Source of the DNA: Octopus vulgaris
Lineage: Eukaryota
DNA: 64,000 nucleotides
Reading direction: 5' to 3'
Assembly: GCA_951406725.2 (NCBI GenBank)
Contig: OX597832.1
Location: forward strand, 8,432,001 to 8,496,000
The notes beneath the pieces were generated by a model, which saw nothing but the letters and a program-made list of their open reading frames with translations, did not search any database and was not told where the DNA came from. The position numbers and the translations under genes were made by a program. Shown here one piece after another: positions 1 through 58,187 of this stretch. Numbering within the stretch: the stretch's first letter is position 1; every line of letters begins with the position of its first letter.

Positions 1-500
1 GTACTACACCTCCTCAGCTGCTCCAAATAACGCCAAGTCGTTTCATCTCCAGGGAAGTCGGTGGCCTCAGTCTGTTGCGATGCAAAAAGTCTTATGTTTA
101 TTGACTTCAAAAAGGCGACCCTATCACTGGAGTGTACTATAACAACTTGTTGAAACAGTCACGGATGACGATCGAAATCAAACGCGCGAAAAAACTGACG
201 AAACGTGTCTTCTTTTAATAAGGATAATACTCCAGCAAACAAGTCCTTAGTTACAATGTCTGATGTACTTGGCAGTGACTTTGAACTGCCAGATCATCAC
301 ACATATTATCCTGATTTGGCCCCATCTGTCTATCATCTATTCTTCAACATGAAAAAAAAACCAAAACACTGTTGACATTCTATTTGCTGTTGTTGAATTT
401 GTGAGCAACAGGATGAGACCTTCTTCATCAATGAGAGTCAAGCACTGCAACATCGATAGAAGTGTGTGGACTGCAAGGAGGTCTATGTTTAATAATAAAC
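1..500 (+). mobile_element. Decayed mariner (Tc1/mariner, DD34D) transposase, C-terminal part
   Basis: Interrupted frames read KVVSSPGKSVASV, MFIDF, KDN(T)P and HHTYYPDLAPSVYHLF (cctgatttggccccatctgtctatcatctattc at ~310-342), matching the mariner YSPDLAPSDYHLF motif. Same family as 30000-30670. Confidence 0.8.
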
Positions 501-8264: not shown

Positions 8265-8297
8265 CAATATTTTTGCCATTATAATGCGTGTTCGTAT

Positions 8298-9974
8298 ATG
8301 TGCGTGTATATATATATATATTCACTCATAGACAGAGAAAAAATTGACATAATTCTATTAGCTAGAAAAACCATAATAGAATTCGACGGTAGACTCTGGA
8401 CCAGATCCGATACCCCCGACAATTTCGATGTGGCTATGGGCTCGAGCGATTCAGCTCAGGTGACTGACTTGGTCGGGGCCTACCTGCTCAAGAAGCTTTT
8501 CTCCGAGGTACCGGATCTTCAGGGGGGTCTATACAGAGACGACGCTCTCTTCATATACCCCACCAATAATAGGAGTAAACTAGAAAGAATTAGGAAAAAG
8601 ATCAGGCTTTTTTTCAAATCCTTCAATCTTAAACTAGAATTTATGACCAATACTAAAATAGTTAACTTCTTAGATGTTACGTTAGATTTGAATAAGCACC
8701 TTCACTACCCGTATAGGAAACCAGAAGAAACTACCAAATACATCCATACCTCTTCCAACCATCCACCCTGTATAATTAGCACCACAGTCCAAGCCATCTC
8801 AGACAGACTGACAAAACTATCCTCTAATAGAGAAATTTTCAATAATCATGCACAACACTACAACCAGGCTCTCTATAGTGCCGGGTATAACCAGAGAATA
8901 TCATATGTAGACCAACCGGGAGCGTCCGTCGACCATAAGACTCCCAATTATAATCGAACTCAGCACTCAACTCACACTACCAATAAGTCTAATTCAAACT
9001 CCAAACAACGTATAGGAAATAGGCGAACTAATAGAACAGCACACAATAGTAACCCTCCCGACGAGAGCAATATAGATCCTATTAGGAGAAATAGAAGGGA
9101 TAATAGTAGATTACGCAAATATATATGGTTCAACATACCTTTCAACTTAGCAGTTAGGGGTAAGTTATGTAAGAGAATATTCTCTATAATTTCCAGCAAC
9201 TTCCCACCCACCCACAAATATAGAAGTATCTTCTCCAACAAAACTATTAGGATTTCCTACTCTACCCTGCCCAACATGAGCTGCCTCCTAGCTAAACATA
9301 ACTATATTAATATTAGAACAGCTAGATCAAGAGCAAACCATAGCGACCAACAGAACCCCCCTCATCTAGACAGTAGGCAATATAACCAGACTGGCAGCCA
9401 TACTACCCAAGCAGTTAGTAATAACACCCGCCAACACAACAGAGGAAATACTACACCCATCAACAACCAGGAGGATACCAACGCCCCCACTCGTATTGCA
9501 ACACCTCCGCCTGGGATTAGCAGCACACGACCGAATAATGCAATGCAATGCAACTGCAGATGTGCATCAGAGTGCCCGCTGCAGGGCGCATGCAGGGCGA
9601 AAAACGTAATATACTCATGTGAGGTGAGTACTCAGTTTAACACACTCACCTATATTGGTTGCTCAACCTCCTGGAAATCCAGATACTACAACCACCGGTC
9701 CTCGCTGAGACATAGACATAAGGCTAACAGCACCTCCCTCTCTAAAAGAATTTGGGAATTAAAAGACAAATGCATAGGCTTCAAACTCAGATGGTCCATC
9801 ATCGGATCAGCTGCACCTTATTTAAATAATAGAGCAGGATGCCAACTATGCTGTGTAGAACTCCTGAACATCTTGAAATTCAAAGACAAACACAATCTTA
9901 TTAACAAAAGGTCAGAGTTCAAACCATCCTGTATACATAAACTTATTAATACTTTCAAATACTACAATGCTTAG
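8298..9974 (+). CDS. Penelope-like element ORF (5'-truncated RT + Cys linker + GIY-YIG endonuclease), Naiad-type
   Basis: Uninterrupted 558-aa frame containing FDVAMGSSDSAQVTDLVG, GGLYRDDAL (8532-8543), VNFLDVTLDL, PYRKP..YIHTSSNHPP, IWFNIPF, IRISYSTLPNM, CNCRCASECPLQGAC, VIYSC..YIG, RYYNH, SLSKRIWELK, CQLCCVE and LINKRSE..CIH. The first ~9 codons are microsatellite-derived, so the listed start is not the real one. Confidence 0.95.
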   Translation: MCVYIYIYSLIDREKIDIILLARKTIIEFDGRLWTRSDTPDNFDVAMGSSDSAQVTDLVGAYLLKKLFSEVPDLQGGLYRDDALFIYPTNNRSKLERIRKKIRLFFKSFNLKLEFMTNTKIVNFLDVTLDLNKHLHYPYRKPEETTKYIHTSSNHPPCIISTTVQAISDRLTKLSSNREIFNNHAQHYNQALYSAGYNQRISYVDQPGASVDHKTPNYNRTQHSTHTTNKSNSNSKQRIGNRRTNRTAHNSNPPDESNIDPIRRNRRDNSRLRKYIWFNIPFNLAVRGKLCKRIFSIISSNFPPTHKYRSIFSNKTIRISYSTLPNMSCLLAKHNYINIRTARSRANHSDQQNPPHLDSRQYNQTGSHTTQAVSNNTRQHNRGNTTPINNQEDTNAPTRIATPPPGISSTRPNNAMQCNCRCASECPLQGACRAKNVIYSCEVSTQFNTLTYIGCSTSWKSRYYNHRSSLRHRHKANSTSLSKRIWELKDKCIGFKLRWSIIGSAAPYLNNRAGCQLCCVELLNILKFKDKHNLINKRSEFKPSCIHKLINTFKYYNA

Positions 9975-11715
9975 GTCTTATACCAACTCCCCCATGCTAT
10001 TTCCTCCCACCCGGTGCAACCTGTCGGCTCCAGCACATCCCGCTTTCCTATATGTGCGTGTGTATGTGTGTGTGTGTGTGTGTGTGCGTGTGTATGTGCG
10101 CATACGTGTACGTATGTGTACATATACATATATATATATATGTGTGCCACCTCCATCTCATGTTAAACTTTACAAAATTATATTTTTACCTTATTTTTTT
10201 ATTTTATTTTATTTTATTTTTATTTTTATTTTTATTTTTACTTTTATCCTACTTCCTTTTATTTTTATTTTTAATTTTATTTTTACTTTTATTCTACTTC
10301 CATTTACTCTCATTTTCATTTTCATCCCTTACCTTAACTCTTATAACCCTTATAATTCTTATATTTCATTTCTAACTATTACATTGTATTTCTTATTTTA
10401 TACTGTATTTTTTATTTCTAATATTTACCCTTACCCTCATTCTTACCCCTAATTTATCGCTTTACACCTCTATATATGTTTATTTACTTACCTATGGATC
10501 CGCCTTTTGAGTATGCGAGCGTCCGCGTACGTGTGTATGCGCATACATACATATGCACGCGCGTATATGTACATGCATACTTCGATATCTTATGGCTATA
10601 CCCATGTGCGCGTGTGTCTCTGTGTGTGTATATGAGTGTATATGTGCACGCACATACGGACACACAGCCGTGTGTGCGTGCGCGTATTAACATGAGTACG
10701 GGATTCTTTACATACGTTCTTATACACATCCTTTAATACCTTATACCTAGACCTAGAGGCGTGGGCATATACGTGTGTGTATGTAGTGAGGGGCGCGCGT
10801 ATATACATGTGAGCGGGTACGCGCGTAATGCTCGTCTATATATGCGGATATTCTGTTGTATGTATGTGTGTGTGCGCGCGTGCGTGTGGGTGCGTGTGTG
10901 TTTATGTACGTGTTTACACGCGAGTGCGTGTGTATGCTTATAGGCTTGGAGACGTATATGTACGCGTGTATGTGGGTGTATGTATCCATGATGATATGTA
11001 TGTACTGGAAGTCCATTTAATTCAAGGAACCAGATTAAATTCTCATCAGCTCTGATTTACGACGAAACTGTTAATTTACTGACAGTTCTACAACTAAGTT
11101 TTATCAATCTCCTGACCACCATGCTTGGTCCACGACCTCTATACATCCCTTATCTTTACATTCTTTTACACTTTTATCATGTTTTTATCAGGTTCTTTTA
11201 CTTATTTTACTATTATTTCCATTTCTATTTTTACTTTACAACCTTATGCCTTTACATTTCTTTATATTTCTTTATATTTCTTTATACCCCCTTTACATCT
11301 CCTTACAACTCTTTATATCTTTATCCTCTACATTTTTATATTATTCTATACGTACATTTTTTATATATATTTTTTATCCCTCGTCCCGAACTCTCGCCCC
11401 TCCATCTTCACCTCTATATACGTATTTATTTATTTACATTACCTCAACATCCAAGTTTCCTCATTCTACATTGAGAGAAGAAAGAGATGGACGCTTCAAT
11501 TCTATGCTGCTGCCGCATTATGTCGTACGTGAACGAGAGGATTTGCATCCCCAACCAAGAATTTTTGATGTAACACATGTCCTTGTGGAAGCTGTTGTGC
11601 GCGGCTGAAGAAGGCCACAGACATACATTATGCTTTGTTATAAATCTGTCTAATAAAGGCCCGAAACATATGTACCGCTGAGTCCTTCGCCTCATGTTTT
11701 TATTTTTATTTTGAT

Positions 11716-11718
<3 letters not shown>
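8320..11718 (+). mobile_element. Extent of the young PLE insertion: ORF plus ~1.7 kb low-complexity 3' region ending in HHR, flanked by (TA)n
   Basis: Starts directly after (TA)n at ~8320 and ends tttgatcaa|(TA)n at ~11718. The hammerhead is ~40 bp before the end. Confidence 0.75.
11601..11678 (+). ncRNA. Type I hammerhead ribozyme (PLE pLTR type)
   Basis: gcgg-CTGAAGA-a-ggcc...(~40 nt loop)...ggccc-GAAA-catatg-TA-ccgc. Stem I gcgg/ccgc, palindromic stem III ACATATGT, GUA cleavage triplet. Confidence 0.85.
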
Positions 11719-16131: not shown

Positions 16132-16386
16132 CTCTACTATAGACACAAAGCTTGAAATATTAAAGCAGGGATCCAGTTGATTACTTCGACTACAGTATGG
16201 AACTGATACTTATTTTATCATCTTCAAAATAATGAAATACAATTTCGACCTCGGCGGAATTTGAACTCAGAATGTAAAGCCGAAAGAAACATTTTACCCG
16301 CCGCAAGACATTTTACGCACCGCTAGATATTTTACCCGCCGCTAGATATTTTACCCGCTGCTAGACATTTTACAGTTCGTCGCTTT
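16132..16386 (-). mobile_element. Octopus-type SINE copy with an internal ~20-bp tandem repeat
   Basis: tcgacctcggcggaatttgaactcagaa is the reverse complement of the SINE core seen at 57645-57670. Four to five copies of a(c/t)attttacccgccgctag at 16289-16373. Confidence 0.7.
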
Positions 16387-32679: not shown

Positions 32680-32892
32680 TGTGCCTGTGTTTGTCCCCCA
32701 CCATCGTTTAACAACAGGCGTTAGTGTGTTTTCGTCTCCGTAACTTAGCGGTTCAGCAAAAGAAACCTATAGAATAAGTATCAGGTTATACAAAGAATAA
32801 GTCTTGGGGTCGATTTGTTCGACTGAAAGCGCTCCTCCAGCATGGCCACAGTCATATAACTGAAACAAGTAACAGAAAAAAGAATAAAAGAA
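32680..32892 (+). mobile_element. Octopus-type SINE, 3' half
   Basis: cgtaacttagcggttcagcaaaag...ggggtcgatttgttcgact...ccagcatggccacagtc...actgaaacaagtaa; matches 38310-38510 and 49061-49120. Confidence 0.75.
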
Positions 32893-38057: not shown

Positions 38058-38202
38058 ATAGTGGCTGTGTGGTAAGTAGCTTCATTAACAACCACATGGT
38101 TCAGAATCACTGCGTGGCACGTTGGGCGTCTTCTTCTATAGCCTCCAGCCAACCAGAGCCTTGTGAGTGGATTTGGTTGACGGAAACTGAAAAAAGCCCG
38201 TC

Positions 38203-38289
<87 letters not shown>

Positions 38290-38512
38290 TGTATGTGCAT
38301 GTGTGTATGTGTGTGTTTATTCCCCCAACATCACTTGACAACAGATGGAGGTGTGTTTACGTCCCGTCACTTAGCGATTCGGCAAAAGAGAGTGATCGAA
38401 TAATACTAGGCTTACAAAAAGAAGTCCTGTATTCTAATTGCTCGACTAAAGGCGGTGCTCCACCATAGCCGCAGTCAAATGACTGAAACAAGTAAAAGAA
38501 TAAAAGAATAAG
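38058..38512 (+). mobile_element. Octopus-type SINE with internal (TA)n(TG)n
   Basis: Head gtggctgtgtggtaagtagctt, body gccttgtgagtggatttggttgacggaaactgaaaaaagcccgtcg, tail aatgactgaaacaagtaaaagaataaaagaata. It interrupts the 3' end of the minus-strand PLE. Confidence 0.8.
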
Positions 38513-38514
38513 AA

Positions 38515-40210
38515 TTTTATATGCTTCTTCAGTACATGTGTCACATCTTTTGTTGGAGATTTCCCTGACGTTGCAAATCTCACGATCTCCCATGTAATTT
38601 TAAATTCAATGTTATTTTCCTTAAATTCCCATATGAACTTACTTAATCCAGCAGAATTCTTTTTTTGTCCATTTTTAAATCTCTGTAAACGGTTAGCCAC
38701 ACTAATTTTGATTCTATTCTCTTTCATATAGATTCTATTATACATTGGTAGACTAAGTTATCTTTCTTTCTATTAATTTTAACCTTATAGTCACAAGTTT
38801 CGTTTATATCTTTATGTATGTGATTCGAAGTATTAATATGGGTTATTTTCTTTCTATCATTAAGGTATTTATGGCCGTTAACATTATTATTTAGGTTAAA
38901 TTAAATTTGAGGTGAATTGTTGTATTGGACATTTCTACTACTCTCGTAATTATTTTATTTTTTGTTGTCAATTGATGATATAATCATGAATAGGTTACAG
39001 TTTAAACTAAAACCAACTCTGACATGTTTATAATTAATAATTTCGCTATATTTATTATAGTTGTTCAAGGGCTCATAAATAGACATGTATATAGATGTGA
39101 TTAAATTAGTTTTATGTTTTATAGCGTACAGAATGATAACCCAAATCGTAATAAATTCTTCAGAATTATCTTTAGAGTGTTTATAATCTATTTTTGGTTT
39201 AGTAAAATTTATGGAAGGGTTATATGGTTGATGTTTTCTATTACGAATATTACGTGGATTATCAATGGTATGATTATTCAAGGGAATTATTGGCTTGTTA
39301 TTATCATCTGCTTTATTATTTATGTGTTTGTCAATATAAGAATAATGATAATTATTTATTAGTTGCCTATTATTTATATTATGTTGAGAAGAAAATTTAA
39401 TATTTTTCTATATTGTAATTTCTATTTCGAGGTTGATGTTTATTTATTTCGAGTTTATTATTATTACCGCTTAACGGTTTATTATTACATGATTTATTAA
39501 TTCTGCTTTCTTTTAGTCATAGGTTTAACTTTGATTGAATTAGCTGTTCTAACAGTTTTAAATCCTATCGTATAATTTATTCCATCATGTATAATTTTAT
39601 CATTTGGTGGATAGTAAAGCTTTTGTATCTTGTATCTGTGACCAGCTTTACCTACAGCCATGTTGTAATAATCTCCATGTTTCATAAATATTTCTTCGTT
39701 AGATGATAGTCTTGATGTTCATGTTTCTATGTTTTAGATTAACGTTTCAAATTGATCCTGGATAATTACTTAGGAAATTAATGTAGCTTAAATTCGTATT
39801 TAATTTATAAAAAGTTTCGCGTTTAGCAGTTATAAAGTTGAAATTAGCATCTAAAAACTTAACTGATTTATCATTTTCAAAAGAGATGGAGAGCCCATAG
39901 TTTCTGAAAAAAATAGTCTTCTCTGAAATAATTCTGTCTATTCGAGGAATTTTGTGAGAAAAAGTGCATCGCCCCGATATAACCCTCCCCTCAGTTCAGG
40001 AAATTCCTCATGCAGGTTCTACAAAAGATAAAGTCCAACGAGATCCCGTAATTAGACCGAGTCGGCGGCGCCCATTGTAATGTCGAAGCCGTTAGGAGTG
40101 TCTTTTCTAGTCCAATATTTACTATCAAACTCAATTGAATTTCGAGCAGCTAGGATAACATTAATTTCATTCATATTAAGGTTTCTAGCAAAAAGTATAA
40201 TAGTATTGAT
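38515..40210 (-). pseudogene. Decayed PLE ORF (RT + GIY-YIG), a relative of the 8298 element
   Basis: The minus strand gives EINVILAARNSIEFDSKYWTRKDTPNGFDITMGAADSV*LRDLVGLYLL, GGLYRGDAL, SVKFLDANFNFI, LSSNEEIFMKHGDYYNMA..AGHRYKIQ, HVRVGFSLNCNL, NLVYQC and GLSKFIWEFKENNIEFKITWEIVRFA..CDTCTEE. Confidence 0.9.
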
Positions 40211-40509
40211 AGACAAATAATGATTGTCAGTGTCTACTTGTAAAAATGTATGTAAAAATATATTTCAATATTATTAAACAATAAGCTTCATGTGCATAAC
40301 AGCATATTTTGAGTGTTATAATATTTCTAGGTATAGGTATATTTCTATCTAAAATAGTTCTACGTAATCTACTTAAGTCCGAAGTACATGCGCTCTGTTA
40401 GGGGGCCTGCAAAACTTGAAGTAGCATGGAAATCAAGTGAAACAGTTTTAGATATTACACGTAACTCCCACTAAAAGTGTTGAGTAAGCTTTACTTTCGT
40501 CTGTCCCCT

Positions 40510-40556
<47 letters not shown>

Positions 40557-40576
40557 CTGTGTTTGTGCGTGTACAA

Positions 40577-40663
<87 letters not shown>

Positions 40664-40664
40664 G

Positions 40665-41560
40665 TAATAGAAATATTAAAATTACTAAGTCTCTCTAAAA
40701 GAGAACAGCAGCAGCGTTCCCGGAAAATAATAGTTATCGCCATACTAATATGGCATTCTTATAAAAATAAGAATAAAGCTGTCCGCTTATTAGCTCCATG
40801 AGGCCATCGCCTTAAGTTAGCTATTTGATACACAAACTGTATCCATATAACCTTCGAACAAGGGAGGTCAGTCACTCCACACTACTTGACCGGCAGCTAC
40901 AGACGCGTTTCGGGGTATTGCCCCTTTTCAATGCAGCGTAGCCAGCCAGTAGGTGTCGCTTCCGACAATCTCTGTTCGATGGTTTTATTTACCTAGTTTC
41001 GGTGGAATACATCCACTTGTTTTCAATAATAGAAATATTAAAATTACTAAGTCTCTCTAAAAGAGAACAGCGGCAGCGTTCCCGGAAAATAATAGTTATC
41101 GCCATACTAATATGGCATTCTTATAAAAATAAGAATAAAGCTGTCCGCTTATTAGCTCCATGAGGCCATCGCCTTAAGTTAGCTATTTGATACACAAATT
41201 GTATCCATATAACCTTCGAGAGATTTAGAGAGACTTAGTAATTTTAATATTTCTATTATTGAAAACAAGTGGATGTATTCCACCGAAACTAGGTAAATAA
41301 AACCATCGAACAGAGATTGTCGGAAGCGACACCTACTGGCTGGCTACGCTGCATTGAAAAGGGGCAATACCCCGAAACGCGTCTGTAGCTGCCGGTCAAG
41401 TAGTGTGGAGTGACTGACCTCCTTGTTCGAAGGTTATATGGATACAGTTTGTGTATCAAATAGCTAACTTAAGGCGATGGCCTCATGGAGCTAATAAGCG
41501 GACAGCTTTATTCTTATTTTTATAAGAATGCCATATTAGTATGGCGATAACTATTATTTT
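40665..41560. mobile_element. Young non-coding HHR-like element: 362-bp unit + 193-bp partial tandem copy + 337-bp inverted copy, flanked by (TA)n
   Basis: 40665-41026 is repeated from 41027 to 41219 with few substitutions. 41224-41560 is the reverse complement of ~40724-41061. Confidence 0.9.
41343..41389 (+). ncRNA. Variant minimal type I hammerhead-like motif (mirror copy at 40896-40942, minus strand)
   Basis: tgca-TTGAAAA-gggg(caata)cccc-GAAA-cgcg-TC-tgta; palindromic stem III ACGCGT. The core deviates from CUGANGA at two positions. Confidence 0.6.
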
Positions 41561-41565
41561 ATGTA

Positions 41566-41631
<66 letters not shown>

Positions 41632-41653
41632 TATATATATGTAAATAGGTATG

Positions 41654-41696
<43 letters not shown>

Positions 41697-41700
<4 letters not shown>

Positions 41701-42137
41701 TATATACAAACTCTACTGTCTGTCTGTGTATCTTCTCGAATCTCGGGCATCCTCCATCCGATTGCGCTCAAATTTGATATGTAGATACCGACGGTATCAG
41801 GGCGTGTACAGGTCATGAAAGAATTACAAAAATCGATTCCATACGAGAATACGATCCATAAAGCCGTTTTTGTCACTGCTTTTCTTCCGTCAACCTGTAT
41901 ATAACTGCACCTTCCATTTTTTGTAGGTTTGTACTGCTTAAAGGCACGTTTCTTTCCTGCCTAGATTACTGTTTAAACAATGTTTGTATTCTCCCAATGA
42001 ACAGCCTTACCATTACTGGTACTTTAAAGTCTTCGGTTGCATATGTGTGTGAATAAAATCGTTTTTCTTTGCTGGGGTCTCAAATTTAAGTTAAACCAGT
42101 GTTTCTCAGTCCATTGGACGGGGGGCGTTTTGGTAGT
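41697..42137 (+). mobile_element. Non-autonomous Helitron-like element
   Basis: 5' atcttatatacaaa followed by ctgtctgtctgtgt and ccgattgcgctcaaattt; 3' hairpin gtccattggac followed by ...gGTAGt. Confidence 0.55.
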
Positions 42138-42140
42138 TTA

Positions 42141-42199
<59 letters not shown>

Positions 42200-42267
42200 A
42201 TATATATACATAAATGTATATATACCCGTTTATAAACCTGCTAAGTTACGGGTATATAAACCCACAC

Positions 42268-42298
<31 letters not shown>

Positions 42299-45200
42299 CG
42301 TATATACATACATACATACACACACATGTATATATATACATATTTATATATATGTCTGTTTATTTATATATTTGTATATATGTGTGTTTGTGTGTGTGTG
42401 TGTGTTTGTCTTTCTGTGTGTGCGTGCGTGTTTTTTTACAGAGACATGAACATGTACGTAAGGAGATGAAGGGAACGGATATACCATATACCTAAAACTT
42501 CCGATCATTATAATAGATTACCAGTGCACTTGAAAAAGGAGTGAAATTCTTTGTACAAAGAGAGATTTCATACACGAATGCAGACATTCAGCATGAGTAA
42601 AAACGTTCATTGGGAAATATGTATATAAAAACATTACTGTTTGATATATATATACATATACAGATTTCAAGAGAATAAGGTCCCTTCCGGTATTGTAAAT
42701 GCTACACGATCGATTGGTATACATAATATGGTTGCGATATATCTTTCCACTCATCCTTTATTTCCTCAAAAATAAAAAAATGAAATCAAACATTCTAAAA
42801 TGCAGTTCTGTTAAACAATACCGGAAGGGCAAATTACATACTGATTATGGTTTGTCCCTTATTGAATACATATTTTGTTTAACTAGAGCTGATCTAAAAG
42901 CTTTTGGTAAAACATGATCAAGAGCAAAAACGTTCCAGTGCCAAAGATGGTATTAGATCTTAGATCAATCACCCTAATGGAAATAAGATACACGTATGCT
43001 TTACATCACGTCCTATAATATTCCAGAACAGGAAGGATACATTTATGATATATTTGTAGGTAAGCTGTGTCTGAAAAAATGATTGTAGTGGGAGTCGCTT
43101 TTCTGATAGGACATTTTAAATTAAAGATCAGGTTTTAATCAGCTGGCATATCCTATAACAAGAACAAAGGAAAACTTTTAACACCATGACTCATACGTAC
43201 TTGTAAACAGGTATAATAAGATTCTTAAGGCTACACCGACATCTGGACCTACTTGTCAACAACGAAATACATTCGATATCCAGGATAGAATTAGGAGTTA
43301 TAAACATGATCGTAGGTAAACGAAGAAATATCATATTAATTTGTGAATGTCGGAATCAAGCAATTGTAATTTGAAATTCGTTTAAAACTTGAGCATGATA
43401 ATCTCTTTCATCTCGATTATAACGCATACAAATAGTTTGTATAAACTGTAAATAAATACTAACAAAACGATGTTATTCATATTTAGAAAATAACACTGAC
43501 CTGAACATTAAATAGTACAACGGTTAGTGAGACATATTTCACACAGACTTGTCTTCTCGACGTGCCACAGTTTCAATAAGTTTTAAAGCAAATCAGACAA
43601 CAATCTATTCTGTTAAATTACAGAAACATCAAACGTTTCAGTTCGTTGAAAGTATATAGTCATTAGACTGAATATTTTGAAATATTTTGTAAGCTATTCT
43701 TCTCAATGTTGACGATGGAGAGGAATCGCATCGCTGATACTAACTTTAGTTTAACGTTTAAACCATCGTTAGATTTACAGTTTTCGAGAGAAAAAGAGGT
43801 AACAGTAATTTCTTTCATGACCTTATCTTGGCCCGAGCCACTGTGTGAACAGAGATTCTAATTCGTTCGGGGTGATGAAAATAATTTACGAACTTTGACA
43901 GATGTGAATAGGGATGAGCCCTCATTTAGAAGGCGACAATAAGTCCCTGTTGTAAATCTAAATAAAAATAATTTTCGAAGTGCCAAAGGACCGCCTGATG
44001 ATATATAAATCACCTTCCAACAGTCGACGCCAAATAAGCATAGCTAACCCTATTCACACCCGTTAGGGTGCTATTATATTTTATCCCTATAAGCTGCACC
44101 ACCACACACCACAAACTGCACGTAATTATATGGAATATGATGTTAATATCTTATAAATCTGTGGTAAATATTTAAATGCTAATCCAAGTATTTTTCTTTC
44201 AAACTATTAAGAATCTGCTCGTATATTTTTCCTTCCCATTTTGTAAACTAGTTTGCGGTTCACTAATAATTGTTAGTTCATTAGTTTAACTCTAAGGTTG
44301 TTTTTGCATTGCTTTCATCCCCTCAGCTGATATCTGGTTACAATATTCCTATAGCATCTTCATAATATATTCACATCCTTACTTTATCAGTTCGGTTTCA
44401 TTTCATATATATTTCTTTGTCATAACAGTGTAACTTTTGAAGTTATTCTTGGACCATATTGATATCAATATGAATAGGTTTTGTTATAGAATCATTATAT
44501 TACTGTCAGCTAGGATTCATTCCAAGTCCATTTGATTTGGTTGGTCGGTTGCCATATTTAACTTGATAAATTGACATTTTTTAGGTCTTTGCTCATTTAT
44601 AACCTACAGCAAATACGCACTTGGATATTTGCTTAACACGTCTTTATATTTTTAGCATTAAGAATCCATATATATTTTACTGCGCTAATTATTATTTTTC
44701 ACTCTCCTATTGGCAAATCTACATTCCATTATTACTGTCATGCTGTCATCTCGTTTGTTTCAGATCTCCACTTACAACGCATTCATCTCAACCAATTAAA
44801 CATCATTGTTTAGTTTGGAATTCTTAAGTTTTTCCTTTTACTTAGAATTGCGTTGACATTGATATGTTTTTTCAAAGGCTTCTCTTAATTCTTGAACATT
44901 TACAACTGTAAGTAATAATTTCCATATATCAGTGCTATGCGATAAATTCCGCTTGTGTTATTAAGATTGAAATCCTTTAAGATCATGTTTTAGACTTACG
45001 TTTTGCGTGGGCTATATTCGAGAATGCCGCTTATATTTGCACATGTAAGATCTAACTTTCAACTAGAATTACACGCAATAGTTATCTATCGAGTATGAGA
45101 ATGAAACACAATTTAGTAATCATAATCGTCCTGTTGAATTGTAGTTTACTGTGTTGGGAATTTTGTGTTAATAGAATTCATTCATGTGGACAGATGTTAG

Positions 45201-47219: not shown

Positions 47220-48870
47220 GTATCATGAACTCCTAGAAATATCAACGTAACTCATAATTTCATTGTAGACGTGTTGAATATTTATGTTAAAAATGTTAAC
47301 AATGCCAAGAAACAACTGGAATTAATAAAATTTTCAGCTGAAATAGGCATGGAATTTGGCCAAAAGAAATGTTCATTTCTGGTTATAGAACAAAGAAAGT
47401 CAGTCCCCCAAACGCCAACCCTGAGCATCAACGGTCTCTCTATTTCACCCATTCCACACAAAGAATGCTACTAATACCTAGGCATAGGCAAGGATGTATC
47501 ATAGGGAGGCACTGTGAATAAAGACAGAGTGACCCGAGAACATTATACAAGACTTAGAAAAATATGGAAGTCGGGAGACCCCTCTTACAACAGAACAATA
47601 TCCCACAATGCGTTTGCAGTACCAGTGCTGATCCCAACATTTGTGATGCTTGATTGGTCTGTACAGGAAATTCATTCCATACATATCAAAACACGCAAAA
47701 TCCTGACAACTGGGAACTTCCACAGAAACAGTGATGTTGAAAGGGTCTGCCTAAGAAGAAATGAAGTTGGTAGAGGCCTGAGATCTGTGCAGACAACCTT
47801 CGAATGACGTATGGTAACACCTGCTAAACAATAGCAGTAAAAATAAATAAAAACATGCAGTGCTGAAAAGTGAAGTGAGCAACATTGTAGGAGTTTGCAG
47901 TGAGCTCCTCAAGAGGCATTCTCTTCTTGATGATTTCCTATACAGCCCCAAAACAGCTGGGCTCTCTTACGTCAGAGAAGACCTCAATGGAAAGCCCCTT
48001 AGCATAGAAAAAAAGATTATGCATGGGCATGTTGCTCGGAAGCTTGGAGATGACAGTAGAATTGACACGAAATGCAGCCTATCTTGGACACTAGATCACT
48101 ACATTACATCACACTTTGAAGGGCTATGTTTTTGCAATCCAGGTATAAGAGATTGCCACAAAATACCTGGTGAACAAGAGAGATAGTGACGCTCTTGCAA
48201 TCGCATGTGCAGACTATTTCATGTTTCTGTGTAAGATATCACACATATGAATAACAGCTGCCCTAAAATGTCCTTACTTTACTACCTCCCTAAACGATAA
48301 GCTTTACAATGCCATCCACACAAAGACGACTGTCCTGAAATAAACTTAGAAAATCCCTGTTATGGAATACATTCATAAATACCAACTCAAGGAATACTGG
48401 TGAAATATTGCCTTCAAAATAGCTATCAAATGTAAACATAACAGGCTAGATATTGTTAGGAACAGAGGGGCAAACGTATGTGCCATCATAGAGGTCAGCT
48501 GTCCTGCAGATAGAAAATTAGAGAAAAAGAGAACATCTATGGACAACTGCTTCTATATCCTCCTACTTCTATATCCAGACTATGAATTTATATTCATACC
48601 AATAATAATTGGAGCTCTAGGTTTTATTAGTAAATGCTTAAACGAGAATCTGGATAAACTGGGACTTCGAGAAAGAGAAATTGACTGGCTAATTCATACA
48701 CTACATGTCCATTCTCAGAGTGGAACAGTAAAAATATGTAAAACGTTTCTCAAAAGTTCCAAATGTGAATTTGTGTGTGTTAACTGCATCACAAAGATGG
48801 AACCTTGTATCTTTGTTTGAAACCGGCTCCCTCCCCAGTGGAAGATTTATAATAATTAAAGAATAGGAGA
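47220..48870 (+). pseudogene. Decayed, 5'-truncated R4/Dong-like non-LTR retrotransposon (RT, CCHC, restriction-like endonuclease)
   Basis: FIVDVLNIYVKN (DD decayed), FSAEIGMEFGQKKC, Y*YLG, RLRKIWKS, NAFAVPVLIPTF, FHRNSDVERVCLRRNEVGRGL, MHGHV, CRLFHVSV*DITH..SCPKM, KHNRLDIV..CAIIEVSCPAD and IPIIIGALG..KICKTFL. Confidence 0.9.
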
Positions 48871-51628: not shown

Positions 51629-51929
51629 TGGACAGCAACATACAAATGGACTGGACGATGCCATTTCAAGTTCATCAGTCATCGACTACCCTATATTATA
51701 CTACCATTTAGGAATTGTGAACGCTCATTGAATGGTGGTGTTCGGCTCACGATTGTAATGTCGTGAGTTCAAAAACAGCAGGGCGTCTGTGCAAGATAAT
51801 TTATTTCACGTTGTTCCGCCTCACTCAGCTAGCAAAAGTGAGTTGTACACGTAGTTCAATGGACAACCTAGTGAAATTCTGTGTCACGCTGCATCTCTGT
51901 GAGAACTATGTGAAGAGTACCCGTATCTT

Positions 51930-52125
51930 ATTTCTTTATTACCCAGAAGGGGCTACACAAAATGAGGACAAACAAGGACAGTCAAACGGATTAAGTCGAT
52001 TACATTGACCCTTGTGCGTAAATGGTACTTATTTAATCGACCTCAAAAAGATGAAAAGCAAAGCCGCCCTCGGCTAGGCCGGCGTGCTAACGTTTCTGCC
52101 TGCTCGCCGCCTTCTCTGCCAGCTC
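51930..52125 (-). mobile_element. SINE copy (family of the 57510 array)
   Basis: ggacaaacaaggacagtcaaacggattaagtcgattacattgaccc...cgtgctaacgtttctgcctgctcgccgcctt is the reverse complement of the array unit. Confidence 0.8.
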
Positions 52126-52616: not shown

Positions 52617-52668
<52 letters not shown>

Positions 52669-52851
52669 TAAATAAATGGTACAACGAAGTACCGATATTT
52701 ACTGGAAAATAGCGATCGTAATAAATACGACGCTATTGTATAGTTTCATTGCGTATATACTATCAAAGATGTGTGCGTGCAACAAACATGAAAAAAATTT
52801 GTCTTACCTCTGGGAAGAACATCTGAACAATGAAAAACCTAGAAACGGATA

Positions 52852-52922
52852 ATGCAGGACCGGTTTCAGACTCTTCAAATACGTTTGACAACGTAGATTT
52901 GATTTGTCCTCATCAGCTGCAT
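52852..52922 (-). ncRNA. Type I hammerhead ribozyme with canonical core
   Basis: Minus strand: atgcag-CTGATGA-ggac...gtct-GAAA-ccgg-TC-ctgcat. 6-bp stem I, 4-bp stem II, palindromic stem III ACCGGT, GUC triplet. Confidence 0.88.
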
Positions 52923-53088
52923 ATACCTAGACAAAATTTCAAATGTTGCCACATCTATATATAGGGTTAGTATTAAAATACCATCCCGAGTGATAAGCGA
53001 ATCATCAGTCGTATAGGCAAAGTAATAAAATATATACATACACTATTAGATATGCACATACATATATATAAAGGTACTATATGAGTAT

Positions 53089-57039: not shown

Positions 57040-57135
<96 letters not shown>

Positions 57136-57270
57136 GACAGGCTTCTTTCAGCATTTGTCTACCAAATCCGTTCACAAGTCTTTGGTCGGCCCGAAGACAC
57201 TTGCTCAAGGTGCCACGCAGTGAGACCGAACCCGGAACCATGTGGTTGGAAAGCAAGCTTCTTACCGCAC
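56915..57270 (-). mobile_element. Octopus-type SINE (38058 family), minus strand
   Basis: cgacaggcttctttcagcatttgtctaccaaatccgttcacaag...ggaaccatgtggttggaaagcaagcttcttacc. Confidence 0.75.
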
Positions 57271-57509
57271 ACACACACACACACACACGTTCAGATCCCA
57301 AACAGTAACTTTAATTAATATGACATATAAAAAGTTCAACAGTGGCGACTAATCTGACACTAGAGAACAAAATATAAATTTTACCCATCTTCAGAGTGGC
57401 AAACCTACGGTGGCACTCTTCCCCTCTATAGTTTAGACGTTTTTTCTCAAAAACATTGCGTTTCGAAAATAAAGCTATATCATAGACATCGCAGAATTAA
57501 TGCGAGCCT

Positions 57510-58187
57510 AAGGCGGCGAGCTGGCAGAAACGTTGGCACGCCGGGCGAAATGCTAAGCGGCATTTCTTCTGCCACTACGTTGTCCCCTCTGTGTTTAGCC
57601 CCTTGTGGGTAGTAAAGAAATAGGTATTCCTTTTGCCGTTACGTTCTGAGTTCAAATTCGGCCGAGGTCGCCATTGCCTTTCATCTTTTGGGGGTCGATA
57701 AATTAAGTACCAGTTACGCACTGGGTCGATGTAATCAACTTAATACTTTTGCCTGTCCTTGTTTGTCCCCTCTATGTTCATACCCCTGTGGGCAGTAAAG
57801 AAATAAGAAACGTTAGCACGCCGGGTGAAATGCTTAGCGGTATTTCGTCTGCTGCTACGTTCTGAGTTCAAATTATGCCGAAGTCTGCATTGCCTTTCAT
57901 TCTTTCGGGGTCGATTAAATAAGTACCATTTACGCACTGGGGTCAATATAATCGACTTAATCTGTTTGTCTGTCCTTGTTTATCCCCTCTGTATTTAGCT
58001 CCTTGTGGGTAGTAAAGAAATATGTATTTCTTCTGTCTTTATGATCTGAGTTCAAATTCCGCTGAGTCGACTTTGCCTTTCATTCTTTCGGGGTTGATTA
58101 AATAAGTACTAGCTGCGTACTAGGGTTGATCTAATCGACTGTTCCCTTCGCCCAAAATTTCGGGTCTTGTTCCACGAGTAGAAAAGA
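57510..58187 (+). mobile_element. Tandem/multimeric SINE array (tRNA-derived-like head) with ttaatgcgagcct target-site duplication
   Basis: Head aaggcggcgagctggcagaaacgttggcacgccgggcgaaatgct; three repeats of ttctgagttcaaatt..ttgcctttcat..ggggtcgat..aagtacc. gaattaatgcgagcct flanks both sides (57494-57509 and 58186-58201). Confidence 0.85.

Follow-up and report, generated by a model that had tools for sequence, protein, structure and literature searches.

A Probable Young Insertion of a 362-nt Retrozyme-Type Element with PLE Anatomy in Octopus vulgaris

The window, the 64-kb stretch of Octopus vulgaris DNA analysed here, contains between two (TA)n tracts a hammerhead-bearing unit that is present both in tandem and in inverted orientation. 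This arrangement raises the question of which RNA served as the template, if any did, and which machinery placed the copies. Metazoan non-LTR retrozymes are tandem units of 150–450 bp with less than 50% GC and canonical type I hammerheads (PMC7229834). Their circles are expressed in coral, mussel and axolotl, and PLEs have been proposed as their helpers (PMC7229834; PMC7761336), a role that rests on co-occurrence and pLTR homology (PMC7229834, PMC7761336, bioRxiv 10.64898/2026.07.22.740005). The last of these sources, a 2026 preprint, treats animal retrozymes as pLTR-derived non-autonomous PLEs, which weakens the choice between retrozyme and pLTR that the first-pass annotation had offered. Further background is found in PMC6155905, PMC7151607, PMC6765202 and PMC7936874. 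Our main reading, to which we assign a probability of roughly 0.78, is that the protein of an autonomous PLE inserted a non-coding, multi-copy 362-nt element of the non-LTR-retrozyme type at this locus, and that the insertion is young.

Anatomy of the insertion

The repeat alignment agrees with the first-pass annotation on the overall structure: 1.5 tandem copies of a non-coding 362-bp unit are followed by an inverted 337-bp copy, with (TA)n on both sides (Table 1). The direct repeat (40665–40857 and 41027–41219) covers 193 nt with a period of 362 and contains two substitutions (40710/41072 and 40837/41199), and arm B is the reverse complement of 40724–41061 minus one G. The unit copies at the locus thus differ at three positions in 892 nt. 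Their near-identity had been taken as the mark of a very recent insertion; the count suggests a young one, not necessarily very recent. The three private differences may be later mutations, assembly errors or traces of a mixed multimer.

The two arms diverge on the ribozyme strand, so that the insertion is head-to-head and both 3' ends lie at the microsatellite. The 3' end of arm A extends 59 nt beyond that of arm B, forming a one-sided tail. Joined to the final two bases of arm A, the filler makes up a 6-mer that also occurs at the beginning of arm B, and it is likely templated. A target-site duplication is not callable because the flanks are low-complexity (TA)n. A head-to-tail junction seen earlier within the inverted copy does not hold as such: it is merely the end of arm A, and the boundary of an RNA monomer would be the cleavage site.

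The insert is solitary and 896 bp long, and no further copies of the unit are present elsewhere in the 64-kb window. Neither a reverse transcriptase nor a GIY-YIG ORF was found within the insert, nor a tRNA at 39000–43000. Read as a circle, the unit contains no ATG-started ORF longer than 38 aa on the ribozyme strand or 21 aa on the opposite one. The predicted circular fold has z = -7.2 on the ribozyme strand and z = -4.8 on the other.

Several other repeats occur in the window. Dispersed SINE-like repeats, 70–83% alike, were found at 38066–38203 and 57135–57271, and at 32695–32887 and 38322–38511. A decayed tandem at 57580–58140 has relatives at 16175–16289 and 51922–52074. The broken frames at 47505–48820 (+) resemble, by our reading, the C-terminal part of a LINE-type retroelement and have no Pfam match.

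Table 1. Features of the insertion and other hammerhead- or PLE-related features of the window
Feature	Position	Strand	Remarks
5'-truncated PLE	8265–11717	+	stop-free 569-codon frame 8265–9974; long 3' region; (TA)n on both sides
Hammerhead of this PLE	11605–11678		C3-G8; long stem II
Decayed PLE, same broad type	38581–40168	-	36% identity to the PLE at 8265; many stops and frameshifts; 500 bp from the insertion
(TA)n tract, left target side	40577–40663		
Arm A	40665–41219	- (ribozyme strand)	repeat alignment; 555 nt, 1.53 units; 3' end 40665 (3' site 1, equivalent 41027); truncated 5' end 41219
One full unit	40665–41026	-	362 bp; 41% GC; no ORF
Canonical-size type I hammerhead, arm A (predicted)	40890–40945	-	U3 at 40931; cleavage between 40902 and 40901
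Second, degenerate minimal-type hammerhead-like motif, arm A	40986–41031	-	U3 at 41026; begins directly after 3' site 1
Short hairpin	41052–41066	-	inverted arm starts in its loop (equivalent 41061 at the locus)
Filler at head-to-head junction	41220–41223		4 nt
Arm B, inverted copy	41224–41560	+	337 nt; 3' end equivalent to 41086 (3' site 2)
Degenerate hammerhead-like motif, arm B	41254–41299	+	U3 41259; G12 41285; H17 41295
Canonical-size type I hammerhead, arm B (predicted)	41340–41395	+	U3 at 41354; cleavage between 41383 and 41384; stem I 41348–41353/41384–41389; core 41354–41360; stem II 41361–41364/41370–41373; GAAA 41374–41377; self-complementary helix III 41377–41382; 3-nt/1-nt internal loop and distal stem
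(TA)n tract, right target side	41560–41706		
Third hammerhead	52665–52925	-	C3-G8; U3 position 52916; 6-bp stem I; long loop II; palindromic helix III

Two hammerhead motifs in the unit

One hammerhead-like motif per full unit had been noted before. This main motif is a putative type I hammerhead of canonical size, and a second, degenerate motif had been missed. The main motif has a stem I of 6 bp, a stem II of 4 bp and a palindromic helix III. It contains the type I core (N3UGANN8A...GAAA...UH, with a Watson-Crick 3-8 pair and three helices), in which U3-A8 replaces C3-G8, and has A15.1-U16.1 and C17. Canonical hammerheads have conserved tertiary nucleotides in loops 1 and 2, and the loop letters of the main motif, UAC and CAAUA, appear to resemble the Schistosoma loops. 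None of 5000 dinucleotide shuffles of the unit matched the strict hammerhead descriptor on either strand, and one of 5000 matched the loose one. The U3-A8 pair is a natural covariation that was reported to be active in vitro (PMC3088659).

The canonical metazoan form combines a helix I of 6 bp and a helix II of 4 bp with a short palindromic helix III, and with so short a helix III it requires a dimer (PMC4209133). Stems I and II of the main motif are predicted to form with p of 0.94–1.0 in the circular ensemble. Helix III alone, in a monomer, would have one or two pairs and a 2-nt loop. It is weak in this form but 6-bp self-complementary, with a predicted self-pairing energy of -7.5 kcal/mol, and cleavage is therefore expected mainly as a dimer.

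The degenerate motif lies 95 nt upstream of the main hammerhead and has the same U3-A8 core; its stem II is longer and its stem I is bulged. The relaxed descriptor to which it conforms was written after the motif had been seen, and none of 5000 shuffles matches it. Pairing of helix III between the two motifs was considered and rejected as unfavourable (+0.2 kcal/mol).

No Rfam hammerhead family was found for the main motif at E ≤ 10, the single match being a chance one. The region 41230–41540 had no Rfam match, the whole window gave nothing at gathering score, and 39500–43000 at E ≤ 1 gave no hammerhead, just microsatellite-driven microRNA matches. The variant U3-A8 core is a likely reason why Rfam misses the hammerhead. 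Two exact-pattern scans of metagenome contigs returned no matches; two viral contigs that match a short core pattern were taken as unrelated.

The unit family in public contigs and other explanations of the locus

At least 75% of the sampled words of the unit were found in 20 of the 24 listed runs, from 13 studies and nine organism codes, and in 19 runs from 12 studies when run X1, possibly the source of the window itself, is left aside. Under the nine codes, the unit words are present at 75–97%. This spread may reflect close relatives, mixed samples or transfer. Contigs of four of the 24 listed runs (X1, X6, X9 and X18, of which X9 and X18 are RNA by guess only) were aligned against the reference 40858–41262. 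The unit family is unreported in the literature on octopus and cephalopod hammerhead ribozymes and retrozymes that we searched.

Run X6 (organism E) yielded one contig of 392 nt, that is 362 plus an overlap of 30 bases, which forms a closed loop with no loose ends, branch or ORF and has about three mismatches to the window. The loop is compatible with tandem DNA and with a circle alike. Together with the lack of an ORF in the unit, it bears out the earlier assignment to non-autonomous, hammerhead-bearing tandem units of the retrozyme type. Run X1, which is not independent if it is the source of the window, contributed 2,630 contigs, and the unit is multi-copy in it. Its records 3 and 4 bridge the tandem junction 41026/41027 with at least 31 letters on each side, one of them being a diverged copy with 20 differences; contigs of X9 and X18 pass this junction by just 8–18 bases, less than the 31-base rule. 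A joint that goes back 362, seen in all four runs, was rejected as evidence for a tandem or a circle since it merely shows that other copies continue past 41219.

On the 3' side, 10–11 of the listed contigs exit into at least 30 unrelated letters, seven of them at 41026–41030, two or three at 41085–41092 and one at 40985. The main exit positions match the arm ends at the locus (41027 and 41086), and several of the ends at 41026–41030 belong to a sister family of about 85% identity, not to the subfamily of the window. Among the loose ends listed for X1, no single well-supported exit into unrelated sequence was seen, the share running on unlike being 0. None of the six displayed 3' flanks in X9 and X18 is (TA)n, short-word assembly being biased against such flanks, so strict (TA)n targeting is unsupported.

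The sister family was seen in X9, X18 and X1. What it has in common with the unit is just the 3'-terminal 88 nt (41030–41117), after which the two diverge. The consensus of its loose ends, inspected by eye, retains a hairpin at the place of the one at 41114–41140 in the unit, the inner stem being a different one. Record 13 of X18 extends this family by 963 nt upstream and is the best lead to a helper element. The joint 40989>41084 in X1 drops 94 nt and has a 7-nt filler; it was read as a copy that ends at site 2, here at 41084, and is joined to a truncated copy, giving a shorter variant of the unit that lacks most of the second motif.

Two other head-to-head junctions were found in X1 at a depth of 29–49: 41049>41227 with 41056>41234, which by our reading are one junction seen on both strands, and 41123>41226. 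Their inverted arms start in the same hairpin as that of the locus (41059; 41058/41051). The starts at all three junctions fall within 41058–41061, with a possible bias as the reference covered just that part of the arm. The locus and both X1 junctions share the head-to-head orientation. The junction of the locus itself is known from the window only, because no listed contig piece spans 41219–41224, the listing stopping short of 124 loose ends and 2,701 pieces.

Sequence variation in X1 was counted at sites with a frequency of at least 5% (n = 22). None of the 22 sites falls in the 40-nt core region 40894–40933 (P = 0.035 over all sites and 0.064 once four sites supported by a single contig are removed, for a region chosen afterwards). 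The flanking variant at 40934 changes a G-U pair to A-U, and the variants at 40893 and 40942 fall on pairing partners, possibly in different copies. With respect to the predicted fold, ten sites are unpaired, six keep the pair and six break it, so across the whole set the fold is respected only weakly. The GAAA of the degenerate motif is disrupted in 13% of the X1 depth (site 40997).

The alternative that survives best, improbable though it is in our estimate, is a 5'-truncated coding PLE whose hammerhead-bearing pLTR end was copied as a partial tandem with an inverted head, there being no independent 362-nt element. The anatomy of the locus is identical to that described for truncated PLE copies, the second motif has minimal, PLE-type features, and the sister family runs upstream into other sequence of up to 963 nt (X18 record 13) that could be coding; a low-depth run such as X6 might also miss a minority branch with an ORF. 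Such a stump predicts a tandem junction specific for the locus, whereas 41026/41027 is bridged by the two X1 contigs, one of them diverged, and closes the loop of X6 under another organism code. The lack of a well-supported exit into unrelated sequence among the listed X1 loose ends, the absence of a PLE reading frame in the unit, and a main hammerhead of canonical rather than minimal size also argue against it.

A tandem satellite with an old hammerhead, spread and inverted by recombination or repair at the DNA level with no RNA step, is very unlikely. The closed contig loop is what tandem DNA would give just as a circle would, the preprint (bioRxiv 10.64898/2026.07.22.740005) leaves room for unequal crossover as a means of local amplification, and the filler could be seen as a templated insertion of the repair type. 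Against this, the locus is a solitary insert and not an array, the 3' ends listed fall together at two positions of the ribozyme strand, and three of three observed junctions have the head-to-head orientation of PLEs. An artefact of assembly or of chimeric reads, affecting the inversion or all of the tandem-plus-inverted structure, is equally unlikely. In its favour, no listed contig piece spans 41219–41224, fold-backs between microsatellites are hard to assemble (PMC8557442), and a homopolymer deletion accounts for one of the three differences. Against it, the arms also differ by two substitutions, the junction is offset by 158 nt and carries a filler instead of being a mirror fold-back, the end of arm B coincides with independent contig ends, and the X1 contigs contain two analogous junctions.

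Proposed helper, template and mode of insertion

The preferred reading, an insertion of a retrozyme-type element by a PLE protein, can be compared with several known systems. Like non-LTR retrozymes, the unit is non-coding, arranged head-to-tail and within 150–450 bp (350–390 bp in mussel); it has a GC content below 50%, a canonical-size type I hammerhead, a strongly self-paired predicted circle, and PLEs in the same genome. Its size, GC content and longest ATG ORF (362 bp, 41% and 38 aa) are within the range of retrozymes, and a weak palindromic helix III is shared with the axolotl HHR_Amex1. It differs from them by the U3-A8 core in a canonical-size motif, by the second degenerate motif per unit, and by the inverted head and two 3' sites; inversions and tails are not treated in the main text of the preprint. 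The features that the unit shares with the retrozymes are those of the sequence. The preprint recognises an active copy by two consecutive units with a complete hammerhead, and the locus is not such a copy because each arm has one complete main hammerhead and arm B is inverted. In the same source, eight of nine predicted retrozyme dimers of Xenopus were uncleaved in vitro and one was cleaved.

PLE insertions bear the signature of a partial tandem, an inverted copy truncated at its 5' end, and a tail on one side (PMC8557442, PMC3846280), and the locus has the partial tandem and the inverted 5'-truncated head in head-to-head orientation. The inversion is standard PLE anatomy and is uninformative on circles. 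With the endonuclease-bearing PLEs (PMC3846280, PMC8557442, PMC11167929) the locus also shares the one-sided tail, the AT-rich or microsatellite target and the hairpin at the inversion point; it differs from their published descriptions by the lack of an ORF, by a tail of 59 nt (the spacing of the two recurrent 3' sites) against the 30–40 nt reported, and by the repeated unit being itself the family consensus. MRC1 and other non-autonomous Chlamys PLEs (PMC8557442) are likewise PLE passengers that lack coding sequence, have pLTRs and form multicopy insertions arranged head-to-tail. These elements are green algal, most are described without canonical hammerheads, and those of the MRC1 type have 3' sequence in common with an autonomous family that is known, whereas none was found for the unit. 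The U3-A8 covariation also occurs in the minimal hammerheads of the Schistosoma Cercyon PLE (PMC4209133), some of which form pairs 100–700 bp apart on opposite strands (423 bp here); the Cercyon motifs are minimal with a long helix II, whereas the main motif has a 6-bp helix I and a 4-bp helix II with an internal loop.

Other PLEs are present in the window (Table 1). The element at 8265 has YRDD, GIY-YIG-like, CxCX5C, CxxC and CxH motifs, which are those of the Hydra clade, and 599 homologs; no Pfam family was found for its ORF, and a 'Neptune-like' label was replaced by the Hydra clade after the motif test. Hydra-clade PLEs insert into (TA)n (PMC8557442). The unit shows no similarity to four PLE-end regions in the window (53–142 of 200 shuffles score as well), so no partner was identified among them, and the Hydra-type PLE is only a candidate clade or partner. 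The decayed PLE, although close to the insertion and on the same strand as arm A, was rejected as a partner given its stops and frameshifts against a young unit, and the lack of similarity. The third hammerhead lies about 190 nt before a (TA)n tract and probably belongs to another PLE 3' stump. No sequence link of the unit to the Hydra-type element or to the third hammerhead element was found.

In assays with a purified PLE protein, AT-rich DNA was cut and extended on both strands, and synthesis began at two internal positions of the RNA, the spacing of which sets the tail (PMC11167929). We propose that tandem genomic copies of the unit would be transcribed on the ribozyme strand, and the hammerhead would cleave mainly as a dimer within multimers, freeing 362-nt monomers that a host ligase may circularise. 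An AT-rich target, in this case (TA)n, would then be nicked on both strands by the reverse transcriptase/GIY-YIG protein of a PLE. Each nick would prime cDNA, and the two internal start sites would lie 237 and 178 nt downstream of the cleavage site, 59 nt from each other. Both cDNAs would pass the cleavage site, one running for 1.53 units and the other stopping in the short hairpin, and their truncated 5' ends would be joined head-to-head with the 4-nt filler.

The predicted cleavage site is preceded by 318 nt and followed by 237 nt in arm A, the corresponding lengths in arm B being 160 and 177 nt. As both arms cross this site, neither could derive from one cleaved linear monomer, and with arm A longer than one unit the template would be an uncleaved multimer or a re-ligated circle. 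The earlier proposal of a multimeric or circular template therefore stands insofar as the template was longer than one cleaved monomer; the structure does not choose between its two forms. An uncleaved multimeric transcript accounts for the structure equally well as a circle does, and the one PLE examined in vitro relied mostly on unprocessed RNA as its substrate for insertion (PMC11167929). By our own judgement the multimer stands slightly above even odds and the re-ligated circle slightly below.

A more far-reaching version is doubtful as a whole. We speculate that a 362-nt circular RNA could be copied by a PLE protein on both target strands from two fixed internal sites, that the two U3-A8 motifs could represent a minimal pLTR hammerhead superseded by a canonical one, and that spread from species to species could explain why near-identical units occur under nine organism codes. 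If this is true, such insertions would be direct physical evidence of the PLE machinery moving retrozymes by rolling around a circle.

The retrozyme class, the PLE anatomy and the U3-A8 variant have each been described already, which limits the surprise; the 362-nt family itself appears to be new in the literature searched. Searches fixed on C3-G8 and on Rfam models miss families of this kind. A PLE insertion signature on a repeat that consists of the unit only bears on how animal retrozymes move. With its exact predicted start sites, its cleavage site and a natural core variant, the family makes both the helper and the question of circle versus multimer testable.
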